A stretch of 23,679 bases of DNA from the IMG/VR virus record IMGVR_UViG_2671180884_000031, one strand, 5' to 3'. The translations under genes and the position numbers were made by a program. The notes under the pieces were generated by a model, which was given only the letters and a program-made list of their open reading frames with translations, was not told the DNA's origin and ran no database searches. This DNA comes from a virus. Its lineage: Duplodnaviria > Heunggongvirae > Uroviricota > Caudoviricetes. Of the stretch, positions 5,418-7,107 are shown one piece after another. The number at the start of each line of letters is the position of its first letter. The first letter of the stretch is position 1.

Positions 5418-5609
5418 TTAAAGACCTGCCGGGATTTCGATATTATCCTGGTGAATAACTTTATCGACCGGGTAACAGTTACCGGGAATTTTCTGTTCGG
5501 TTGCTGCAGTCATACACTCCTGCATTGTCCTGTGAACACTGACTGCAATATCAACTGGCTCTCCGGAAACAAGAAAAACTGTCAGAACAAGCGCAAATGC
5601 TGAATTCAT
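5418..5609 (-). CDS. ydfD: Small lysis/membrane protein YdfD (63 aa)
   Basis: Internal-Met product MNSAFALVLTVFLVSGEPVD... matches recalled YdfD; ATGA start/stop overlap with dicB. Confidence 0.75.
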   Translation of the reverse strand: MNSAFALVLTVFLVSGEPVDIAVSVHRTMQECMTAATEQKIPGNCYPVDKVIHQDNIEIPAGL

Positions 5610-5794
5610 TGTGCACATCCTTTTGGCATCAGACGTAAACGAGCCAGCATTGAAACAATGCATATTTTATTTAATAGCTCCCGTTCTTGTTTTCTCTTGT
5701 TAATGGCATCTTCAGTAAATACAGGGTTACTGATAGTGACACCAATTTCAAAACAACCTTCAGACGTATTAACGTTTGGTAATAACGTTTTCAT
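5606..5794 (-). CDS. dicB: Cell-division inhibitor DicB (62 aa)
   Basis: MKTLLPNVNTSEGCFEIGVTISNPVFTEDAINKRKQERELLNKICIVSMLARLRLMPKGCAQ from ATG at 5794 with a GAGGA SD upstream; matches recalled DicB. Confidence 0.85.
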   Translation of the reverse strand: MKTLLPNVNTSEGCFEIGVTISNPVFTEDAINKRKQERELLNKICIVSMLARLRLMPKGCAQ

Positions 5795-5967
5795 TATCGC
5801 GTCCTCAACAATGAATTTTGTGATGCAGTGCCTGGTGCCTCCAGGTGACGTTAACCAGTTAACAATTAACGCCGGATACAGAGAATCCACCCATAACACT
5901 GTTTTTGGTTTTAACTGTTCCGCGTGCGCTTAGCCGCATTCACCGCATCACAAAATTCACTTTAAAA

Positions 5968-6021
5968 ACGGCGGTAGAGCAGTCACGGAGTAAAACTGAT
6001 ACTGCCAAACGTCACCAGAAA
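5968..6021 (-). ncRNA. dicF: DicF small regulatory RNA (ftsZ-targeting antisense sRNA)
   Basis: Minus strand reads TTTCTGGTGACGTTTGGCAGTATCAGTTTTACTCCGTGACTGCTCTACCGCCGTTTTT, near-identical to recalled K-12 DicF, ending in a GC stem plus T-run; lies ~170 bp upstream of dicB as in K-12. Confidence 0.8.
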
Positions 6022-6052
6022 ATTGATAACAGAGGGCGTTGCAGCGGGGTTG

Positions 6053-6244
6053 TCACTTAAGCGTATGGTCAACCTGACAACTCGGTGTCCTCAACGGGGA
6101 AGGAATAACCCCGCCATACTTACCGCCGCGCCATTTCGCGGGTTGCCACAACCGGAAGCGCACGGTCGAATTAAATTTAACGACACCGTACAGTGAGACG
6201 AACTTCGCCGTGCGCTTTCGTGTTGTGTGCCTGCTTTTAACCAC
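6053..6244 (-). CDS. Hypothetical small basic protein in the ydfC position
   Basis: 63-aa ORF ending ~30 nt upstream of DicF, where K-12 has ydfC; no recognisable sequence features. Confidence 0.2.
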   Translation of the reverse strand: MVKSRHTTRKRTAKFVSLYGVVKFNSTVRFRLWQPAKWRGGKYGGVIPSPLRTPSCQVDHTLK

Positions 6245-6280
6245 GTCAGGCGAGGTGGTATCCTTAAAATCACCACAGTT

Positions 6281-6856
6281 TTAAGGATTCATTAAGCAAT
6301 GTCGCAACCACCAATAAATCCGCTTAAGAACATGAAAATTGATTACTGGTATAAAGCGCTTACAGTTGTTGGCGCTGCGTTGTTTGTCTTTAATGGAACG
6401 TCTTTTTTTGACAGATATCCCGTTGTTCCATTGGGTTTTTTGTCCTCCGGCATCTTTTTTATTGGTTTGGGGGAGTGGATTAATCACCCTCTCAAGGTGA
6501 GATTTATTGGTCCTGGAGTTTGGACTCGTGGATATAATCGTTCTTCGTGCGCACTCGGTATCATCTTCGACATACTTGGTTGTTTCCTGATTGTTACAGG
6601 AGTCGTCAAGTTCTTCTGATGTAAAACCGCAAATGGGGCACGTAACGGGAATTTTGAAAAGCGTTTCTCCGGGTTCCAGAACAAAATTTTCTGCGGTCTG
6701 ATTTTGCTTCTCATATTTGTGCTCCGCGTCATTGTGAGAGCACATTCTTATTCTGAGTGCCTGTTTAAACTCACTGAAGCTGAGAGCTTCTTCGCCTTCG
6801 GCAAGGCCTTCGAAGTATTCTTCGTAAGCCTTTTCCATGATTGTGTCGAAATCCAT
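6281..6856 (-). CDS. YdfB-like protein; 3' extent uncertain (the part at 6281..6619 may be an antisense shadow of the plus-strand membrane ORF)
   Basis: ATG at 6856 sits one nt after the ydfA stop; MDFDTIMEKAYEEYFEGLAEGEEALSFSEFKQAL resembles recalled YdfB (42 aa in K-12), but the frame stays open for 191 codons and includes a CPICGF motif. Confidence 0.35.
   Translation of the reverse strand: MDFDTIMEKAYEEYFEGLAEGEEALSFSEFKQALRIRMCSHNDAEHKYEKQNQTAENFVLEPGETLFKIPVTCPICGFTSEELDDSCNNQETTKYVEDDTECARRTIISTSPNSRTNKSHLERVINPLPQTNKKDAGGQKTQWNNGISVKKRRSIKDKQRSANNCKRFIPVINFHVLKRIYWWLRHCLMNP
6332..6619 (+). CDS. Hypothetical small membrane protein (three predicted TM segments)
   Basis: ORF 6299..6619; from the internal Met: MKIDYWYKALTVVGAALFVFNG...VVPLGFLSSGIFFIGLGEWI...SSCALGIIFDILGCFLIVTGVV. 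Convergent with, and codon-aligned antisense to, the minus-strand ORF 6281..6898, so only one of the two is likely real. Confidence 0.4.
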   Translation: MKIDYWYKALTVVGAALFVFNGTSFFDRYPVVPLGFLSSGIFFIGLGEWINHPLKVRFIGPGVWTRGYNRSSCALGIIFDILGCFLIVTGVVKFF

Positions 6857-6857
6857 A

Positions 6858-7013
6858 TCACTCACCTGAGTTTCTTTCCAGCCAGCGACGGGCACCATTT
6901 TCGGTTTTAAACGTTTTGCTTTTGGTATACGTCATCGCGGTGAACGTGCCGTCCTGGTTGGGGAACACGCCACATACCAGAGATTCGCTGTTGCCAAGAT
7001 CGATAGTATCCAT
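6858..7013 (-). CDS. ydfA: Small prophage protein YdfA (51 aa)
   Basis: MDTIDLGNSESLVCGVFPNQDGTFTAMTYTKSKTFKTENGARRWLERNSGE from ATG at 7013; matches recalled YdfA. Confidence 0.75.
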   Translation of the reverse strand: MDTIDLGNSESLVCGVFPNQDGTFTAMTYTKSKTFKTENGARRWLERNSGE

Positions 7014-7093
7014 GCTGACCTCATTTCCCCTTAACGCCGGGGTGGCGGAACTGTTTGCTGAGAACACCGTGCGGTGTGTTGATGTAAACAAGA

Positions 7094-7107
7094 TTAGCCA
7101 TGACTAA
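7094..7107. promoter_or_regulatory. Candidate DicA operator (TTAG-N6-CTAA palindrome) in the dicB-operon promoter region
   Basis: TTAGCCATGACTAA lies between dicA and ydfA; the same TTAG-N6-CTAA architecture recurs twice in the dicA-dicC intergenic region. Confidence 0.5.

Follow-up and report, generated by a model that had tools for sequence, protein, structure and literature searches.

The window analysed here is a stretch of 23,679 nucleotides (IMG/VR virus record IMGVR_UViG_2671180884_000031) from a Qin/Kim-like lambdoid prophage of Escherichia coli. Between ydfA and dicF, within the leftward dicB operon of this prophage, a minus-strand open reading frame (ORF) that begins as YdfB carries, on its opposite strand and in exact codon register, a complete plus-strand ORF. 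The reading that we favor, with a probability of about 0.55, is that the plus-strand ORF is a membrane-protein moron of the lysogeny type, nested in antisense orientation in a chimeric YdfB'-early ORF; the tail of the latter would be free in amino acid sequence and kept open. Within the overlap (6299..6619), the plus frame is the protein-coding one and the amino acid sequence of the minus frame is under no selection.

The coordinates and lengths of both ORFs given by the initial annotation, including 191 codons from the YdfB start, as well as the exact alignment of their codons, were confirmed by the ORF table and the sequence. Since the lower coordinates of the two ORFs, 6281 and 6299, are both 2 mod 3, their codons coincide exactly. 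The ATG at 6856 lies 1 nt past the ydfA stop codon and is preceded by GGTGAG. The first ATG of the minus ORF (6898) sits inside ydfA in a different frame (6858-6898), and the 205-aa form found in many database entries and in phrog_35040 probably results from extending the 191-aa ORF too far beyond its start at the YdfB ATG. The features of the region are as follows.

6299..6619, plus strand: plus ORF of 106 aa.
6281..6898, minus strand: minus ORF, 205 aa from the first ATG (6898) or 191 aa from the MDFD start at 6856.
6281..6856, minus strand: chimeric 191-aa minus ORF, composed of YdfB residues 1-34, a cassette region with the CPICGF knuckle, a 107-codon antisense tail and 5 more codons.
6755..6856, minus strand: 5' portion of the minus ORF that comes from YdfB, 34 codons common to K-12 (97% identity to K-12 over 6756..7022).
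6620..6754, minus strand: portion of the minus ORF that derives from the cassette and codes outside the overlap, with the conserved core PGETLFKIPVTCPICGFT at 6620..6673 and IPVTCPICGF at 6623..6652.
6239..6755, no strand assigned: 517-bp cassette replacing positions 1648766..1649161 of K-12 Qin, delimited by the breakpoints of blastn homology.
6230..6264, plus strand: conserved non-coding block upstream of the plus gene, delimited by invariant alignment columns.
6260..6288, no strand assigned: 10-bp perfect inverted repeat, ATCCTTAAAA-N9-TTTTAAGGAT, with arms at 6260-6269 and 6279-6288.
6858..7013, minus strand: ydfA (DUF1391), first gene of the leftward operon, whose stop abuts the start of the minus ORF (annotated by the Prokaryotic Genome Annotation Pipeline, PGAP, on identical sequence).
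5969..6020, minus strand: dicF small RNA gene, located farther down this leftward operon (Rfam RF00039, 62.2 bits, E 1e-12).

To determine which frame is selected in the overlap, we compared eight diverged alleles (the window type, L121, L123, L125, L126, L124, L007 and L004). The ratio of nonsynonymous to synonymous substitution rates (dN/dS) was 0.06-0.20 in the plus frame, with substitutions distributed over plus codon positions 1:2:3 in proportions such as 11:7:34, versus 1.2-2.0 in close pairs and 0.55-0.8 at saturation for the same DNA read in the minus frame. The proportion of synonymous differences (pS) in the plus frame was high in all four quarters of the gene without any local drop, which rules out a hidden sub-region under dual constraint. 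Single-nucleotide polymorphisms (SNPs) in the overlap of 29 ungapped E. coli alleles amounted to 14 synonymous and 14 nonsynonymous changes in the plus frame, and to 6 and 22, respectively, in the minus frame, two of the latter being stops. The initial annotation had proposed that selection on one frame and not on the other would settle which gene is real, and this comparison gave such an answer, with purifying selection on the plus frame and none on the minus frame. Purifying selection on both frames, as required of a functional antisense pair, was not observed.

The decay of natural alleles follows the same asymmetry. Among 37 window-type alleles obtained from 186 loci, 29 carry both ORFs intact. 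The plus ORF is unaltered in 35 of the 37, one frameshift breaking both ORFs and one allele bearing a 6-bp in-frame deletion. The minus ORF alone is broken in six alleles (five premature stops and one frameshift) with the plus ORF intact, while the reverse case was never encountered. This 6-to-0 pattern fits a host-retained lysogeny gene facing a lytic-phase ORF. Furthermore, the antisense frame of the wider family contains 124 stops in 28 loci (~108 expected). Since the antisense frame is full of stops across the wider family, the conserved gene must be that of the plus frame; these stops also rule out an open antisense frame as a property of the whole family. Inside the overlap, the minus ORF thus has the marks of a shadow ORF, as it is codon-aligned to a gene under purifying selection and shows none on its own residues. 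AlphaFold2 predicted no fold for its product (predicted local distance difference test score, pLDDT, of 46).

The plus ORF is a real gene, whose 106-aa product is a membrane protein with three helices and belongs to a family not described before. When 5.8 billion proteins were searched, ~60 relatives sharing 34-100% identity were found, the full-length ones being 98-122 aa long, from Yersinia, Herminiimonas, Reinekea and other hosts as well as from metagenomes. Their alignment contains 13 invariant columns, located in the motifs DYWYKA and IGLGEWINHPL. With a profile searched against 1.84 billion cluster representatives, the family grew to 488 members, 218 of them at E <= 1e-10, and nearly all are stand-alone proteins of roughly 100-110 aa. 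The confident AlphaFold2 model (pLDDT 88, predicted TM-score 0.74) shows helices at residues 17-32, 42-62 and 85-105 and a hairpin at 66-78, and the hydropathy profile agrees with this model. The product is predicted to be an inner-membrane protein with three transmembrane helices and a beta-hairpin. The homologues, the invariant columns, the dN/dS values and the model all support the initial view of this ORF as a convincing three-transmembrane protein, and the placement of its gene as a convergent unit within the dicB operon was likewise borne out. The protein matched no family in Pfam, NCBIfam, PHROGs or PADLOC, and a Foldseek search with the model against PDB and BFVD gave nothing at E <= 1e-3. 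In Arcobacter sp. NZ_CP182343.1, three sites (L022, L023 and L024) give identical tblastn matches of one protein to the family, which suggests that these copies are carried on a repeated mobile element.

In the non-coding block that precedes the plus ATG, conservation far exceeds that of synonymous sites. Within this block are an invariant inverted repeat, GCCTG (6230-6234) and CAGGC (6247-6251), and a -35-like TTTAAC (6236-6241) separated by 17 bp from an extended -10-like TGGTATCCT (6256-6264); from these elements, 6230..6264 is a candidate promoter/operator of the plus gene. The 10-bp perfect inverted repeat reported by the initial annotation is present and spans the putative -10 and Shine-Dalgarno sequence (AAGGA, 6283-6287) of the plus gene, together with the stop codon of the minus ORF. 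By a rough estimate, ~0.4 such repeats are expected by chance in 23.7 kb, so that its mere occurrence is unremarkable. Direct reading of the diverged lineages shows that it is kept in all of them in imperfect form with altered distal bases (AAAA/TTTT, AAAGC/GCTTT, AAAGG/CCTTT). A larger segment, 6214-6301, is more conserved than coding sequence across ~60%-identical lineages and shows ACCAC..GTGGT complementarity; its folding z-score is -2.6 for the plus strand and -2.2 for the minus strand. This segment could serve as a promoter/operator or as an RNA element of the leftward transcript. From the upstream block, RNAalifold retrieved nothing but the invariant GCCTG/CAGGC stem, which showed no covariation.

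The initial suggestion that one of the two ORFs is probably a shadow held for the minus ORF inside the overlap. It did not extend to the 5' part of this ORF, which has a coding signature, nor does it account for a frame that is unusually free of stops. Just outside the overlap, the minus-frame peptide is kept at a fixed offset of 21 nt from the plus stop, and its CPxCG ends two codons before that stop:

Window: ..LEPGETLFKIPVTCPICGFT
L124: ..KPGEILCRIPVVCPVCGFT
L007 (58% identity in the plus protein): ..GEDICFIPTECPICGFV
Yersinia L004 (51% identity in the plus protein): ..EEIFSIPIECPICGFR
Roseateles L013 (41% identity in the plus protein): ..PPGATITPFYFNCPKCGHR

The peptide is also conserved in L125-128, and its hosts comprise Escherichia, Yersinia, an unassigned metagenomic prophage and Roseateles. 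In the codon alignment, minus third positions vary synonymously (ATT/ATC/ATA, CCC/CCG/CCA/CCT, TGC/TGT, GGT/GGA/GGG, TTT/TTC). In the core 6620..6673 (..PGE..IP..CPxCGF), pS over the 17 codons aligned is 0.5-0.97 versus a proportion of nonsynonymous differences (pN) of 0.2-0.38; SNPs among E. coli alleles in the non-overlapping minus part are 6 synonymous to 7 nonsynonymous. A mere shadow would give no coding evidence outside the overlapped gene, whereas 6620..6673 is conserved in the minus frame. By this pattern of substitutions, the 5' part of the minus ORF, ~35-55 codons ending with IPxxCPxCGF, is genuine coding sequence. An RNA structure or terminator as the cause of conservation 3' of the plus gene was rejected (z-scores of 0.56 and -0.28).

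The start of the minus ORF differs between lineages. In L124-L128, it has its own start (MGIQKQ...) directly behind a ydfA-type leader, and in L007, L004 and L013 its own ATG lies 35-55 codons upstream, overlapping in L013 the end of a helix-turn-helix (HTH) gene. In the window, the minus ORF is an in-frame fusion to codons 1-34 of ydfB, and the internal ATG at 6745 is possibly the ancestral start. A 38-aa short form (P0116) was discounted because the neighboring genes of its assembly are also called as fragments, which points to an error-prone sequence. The 3' end of the minus ORF is variable; in L126, the frame even continues into ydfC. The minus product has homologues solely in enterics, and a profile of its N-terminal domain found no relatives outside the clade. 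In Pfam, NCBIfam, PHROGs and PADLOC, the product matched only phrog_35040, which is the minus ORF itself, and phrog_2061, which corresponds to the N terminus of YdfB. Assignment to a Lar-like or zinc-ribbon protein was not supported, as a single CPxCG is conserved, the match to phrog_6422 has E = 0.44 and no Pfam zinc ribbon matched above noise. Loci L034, L035, L037 and L039, from metagenome-assembled genomes of Desulfocapsaceae/Desulfobulbaceae, carry, 180-322 bp 3' of the family gene, a conserved convergent and non-overlapping ORF (..ACGYIDHMTIDELRERAVGEEFDATCPSCGMFHLTR..) with a CPxCG knuckle, which may be a distant parallel to the enteric minus partner.

The codon-aligned antisense frame contains no stop in any of the diverged enteric lineages, because the plus genes never use TTA, CTA or TCA. 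In neighboring genes, TTA and CTA account for 19-33% of leucine codons and TCA for 15-28% of serine codons. For the three lineages at saturation (dS > 1.6), the plus gene contains 14-17 leucine and serine codons, none of which is TTA, CTA or TCA. Based on the codon usage of neighboring genes, 4.0-4.8 antisense stops are expected per gene, and the probability of finding none (P0) is 0.009 for the window type, 0.003 for L007 and 0.008 for L004; nulls based on the genes' own composition give P values of 0.0007-0.03. The openness of this frame is therefore not explained by chance and codon usage. Additional scans for diverged enteric lineages, in viral contigs containing P0013 and P0014 and in metagenome contigs, returned almost only the E. 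coli type. For the stop-free members of high GC content (L011, L020, L031 and L036), which are without an upstream coding part on the minus strand, a flank-based null makes the open frame compatible with chance. In Pantoea rodasii (L014, 3965-4420), the antisense strand of a 40%-identical member, downstream of an S24 CI-like repressor, likewise carries an ORF without stops (151 aa), in which the cysteine motif, CCECG, lies inside the overlap and not before it.

Taken as a whole, the interval would hold a mobile two-strand cassette that occurs in Qin/Rac-type lambdoid prophages, in their immunity/early-left region. All enteric loci have the cassette between a CI/DicA-type repressor and the early-left genes, and the plus gene faces against both. 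The plus gene would be a moron expressed in the lysogen and facing the repressor-controlled early-left (dicB) operon; judged by its position, its product most likely would serve in superinfection exclusion or in another envelope-level function of host or phage defence. The minus strand would provide an early-operon ORF with a real 5' part, the remaining ~110 codons being the complement of the membrane gene, and in the window recombination would have fused this early ORF in frame to codons 1-34 of ydfB. The trait selected in the overlap might be the uninterrupted translation, or the length, of the leftward message across the antisense gene. Continued translation could keep ribosomes on the early transcript and so prevent its termination or silencing before dicF/dicB and beyond; alternatively, the tail may stay open out of a need for a long basic extension. 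A further step, which we put forward tentatively and at less than even odds, is that the nested pair acts as a switch between the strands of lysogeny and lysis: the lysogen would make the membrane protein, the derepressed early-left message would be translated through its complement, and the choice of codons, devoid of TTA, CTA and TCA, would keep the passage open.

Several observations weigh against a nested moron facing a selectively open early ORF. Codons ending in TA are scarce in these genes generally (GTA, 3/48; ATA, 10/59), which raises P0 to ~0.03 per lineage and makes the P value dependent on the null. The statistic itself rests on three deep, effectively independent enteric lineages and two shallower ones. 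Natural alleles with a premature stop in the minus ORF exist (L108, L119, L132, L209 and L210), and in L123 the CPVCG motif is interrupted by a TGA, so that resident prophages, at least, can do without the open tail. Downstream of the plus gene, no terminator was detected. A consensus scan upstream of this gene detected no canonical promoter, so that promoter and operator roles of the upstream block can be put forward only by inference. In PADLOC, Pfam, NCBIfam and PHROGs, the plus protein has no homologue among the described families of exclusion or defence, and no fold in PDB or BFVD matches it. Finally, the anti-polarity rationale is weakened by K-12, in whose copy of this operon a long untranslated stretch is tolerated (PMC5069750).

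The alternative that survives best is that of an ordinary frame -1 shadow, in which the plus gene would be the sole functional element of 6299..6619 and the ORF with the zinc knuckle would run on by codon and dinucleotide bias, namely TA avoidance and a preference for T-ending codons. Codon-aligned antisense frames are known for the longest spurious ORFs, and several of the results above agree with such an origin: the minus dN/dS of at least 1 in the overlap, a synonymous rate that is not depressed, the scarcity of codons ending in TA, the variable minus end that enters ydfC in L126, and a minus protein without predicted fold. Truncated minus alleles also persist, a stop at codon 102 having diversified into 4 of the 37 alleles. 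We nevertheless consider this explanation doubtful, since TTA, CTA and TCA are missing from three saturated lineages despite their use in neighboring genes, and since TCA is absent as well although it is not a TA codon. For the two lineages outside of the discovery, the joint P is ~2e-5 under the null of neighboring usage and ~1e-3 under the most lenient one.

True dual coding, with a functional minus protein of ~150-190 aa whose basic disordered tail (net charge +12) would be selected for length and composition and not for sequence, is unlikely; that composition would be ensured by the tail being the complement of a gene rich in transmembrane segments. Dual coding would account for the maintenance of the open frame, for the polar and basic character of the tail (12 N, 11 K and 10 R out of 107 residues), which follows a conserved cysteine knuckle domain, and for a layout with exact two-codon spacing from CPxCGxx to the plus stop that extends to Roseateles. 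Against it, the tail shows no sequence constraint and truncated alleles are tolerated, neither domain nor tail has homologues outside the clade, the only CPxCG knuckle comes without a conserved second pair of ligands, and the pLDDT of the product is 46. The opposite assignment, with a minus ORF real throughout and the plus ORF as its shadow, is adopted in effect by PGAP and phage annotators, by phrog_35040, which is built on the minus ORF, and by the cluster sizes in databases (1798 members for the minus ORF versus 141 for the plus ORF), but is refuted by the substitution pattern (plus dN/dS 0.06-0.20 versus at least 1 for minus) and by the wider family, as the plus family reaches loci with 5-17 antisense stops, minus homologues occur only in enterics, and the plus ORF is never the only one broken while the minus ORF alone is broken in 6/37 alleles.

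Under the preferred reading of a moron nested in an early ORF, the locus can be compared with known systems. Lambda RexB and SieB and HK97 gp15 are membrane-protein morons expressed in lysogeny from lambdoid immunity regions. Like them, the plus gene encodes a small membrane protein beside the repressor, persists in defective prophages and is preceded by a control region of its own, here a candidate one. Unlike them, it lies opposite to the repressor and to the early-left operon, and its product shares no sequence or fold similarity with theirs. Lambda oop/cII and coliphage 186 pR/pL are switches based on convergent transcription in temperate phages. As in these switches, the lysogeny-side and lytic-side units face each other, so that transcription of one necessarily makes antisense RNA of the other; here, in contrast, an entire protein-coding gene lies in the overlap, across which the lytic-side message seems to stay translatable.

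Frame -1 ("sas13") shadow ORFs share with the minus ORF the same register, an overlap without constraint (dN/dS of at least 1), a hydrophilic mirror of a hydrophobic gene and the lack of a predicted fold. The minus ORF differs from them in starting outside the overlapped gene, with its own coding signature and start-codon context, and in lacking stops in several saturated lineages, well beyond the expectation from codon usage. Antisense pairs of E. coli O157:H7, namely ano/ECs2385 (PMC5960689) and three overlapping genes of EDL933 (PMC9927249), have support from RNA sequencing and ribosome profiling. They resemble the pair described here in that a long ORF fully overlaps an established E. coli gene on the opposite strand. 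However, theirs are short novel ORFs within a longer annotated gene, whereas here the established gene is the shorter, embedded one; furthermore, the present pair is known from sequence comparison, and its overlap is without protein-level constraint.

The replacement of the K-12 ydfB-ydfC segment, as initially proposed, was upheld by comparison with the K-12 sequence, with 517 bp in and 396 bp out. Alignment with MG1655 showed that the 396 bp displaced comprise the last 28 bp of ydfB, the whole of ydfC and 120 bp beyond, and that identity is 95-97% over 5604..6238 and 6756..7022. The interval from the end of ydfA (6858) to dicF measures 837 bp in the window, close to the ~840 bp given before, and 718 bp in K-12, not the ~375 bp of the initial annotation. 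As also proposed, the minus ORF starts as YdfB, its first 34 residues being equal to those of K-12. It is not a full-length YdfB (b1572, 42 aa), as identity stops after residue 34, at 6755/6756, and the C-terminal SSSAKSNG and stop of YdfB have no match in it. No homology to K-12 ydfC (b1573) was detected by blastn within 6239..6755. Relative to the ydfA-ydfB-ydfC-dicF-dicB-ydfD order of the dicBF operon of K-12 Qin (PMC5069750), ydfA, codons 1-34 of ydfB, dicF, dicB and ydfD are collinear and 95-97% identical, and the window differs by the 517-bp cassette in place of the 3' end of ydfB and all of ydfC.

The cassette was found in 806 of 5426 complete E. coli genomes (~15%), at 99% identity or more in 785 of them, and in one deposited phage, HannyBb; E24377A and ATCC 25922 ("Seattle 1946") are among the carrier strains. 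In L126 (3001-3738) and L128 (also protein P0068), the cassette lies upstream of an intact ydfC, and read-through of the minus ORF into ydfC gives a fusion ORF of 245 aa. Therefore, relative to some prophages, the cassette is an insertion and not a replacement of ydfC. No description of it was encountered in searches of the literature on ydfA/B/C, the dicBF operon and antisense overlapping genes of E. coli.

The usual PGAP call at this locus is only a "ydfB pseudogene" ("ydfB, missing C-terminus"), while some records list the 191-aa minus ORF as hypothetical. The annotation of HannyBb and phrog_35040 both use the minus ORF, and NCBI holds both products as "hypothetical protein". RefSeq offers either nothing beyond the pseudogene or the strand whose overlap shows no protein-level selection, and mostly misses the conserved membrane gene, which stands for a family of ~500 clusters without a Pfam entry. 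The case sets apart three notions that are usually conflated: the real gene, the shadow ORF and the ORF that is kept open while its sequence is unconstrained. If the proposed strand switch is correct, the membrane gene would be constrained by the translatability of its antisense strand and not by the encoding of a particular protein there. If the avoidance of stops reflects selection for translation of the early operon across an antisense moron, it would provide a concrete, testable example of the opposite strand shaping codon choice, and the toxic dicF/dicB operon would have a new layer of control.

In PGAP-annotated records with identical sequence over 6100..7100, the gene order is exonuclease, ydfD, dicB, (dicF), "ydfB pseudogene", ydfA, dicA, dicC and ydaT. 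Toxin-antitoxin modules occur between the repressor and the cassette in several E. coli prophages, including a HigB gene beside an HTH gene, PaaA2/ParE and RelE/ParE (L125, 2139-2803; L126, 2252-2731; L121, 1650-1717), which points to the repressor-cassette junction as a hotspot for accessory genes. In the window, the spacer between dicF and dicB (5762-5971, minus strand) gave a full-length, sub-threshold match to the Rfam family STnc100 (34.5 bits versus a gathering score of 47).

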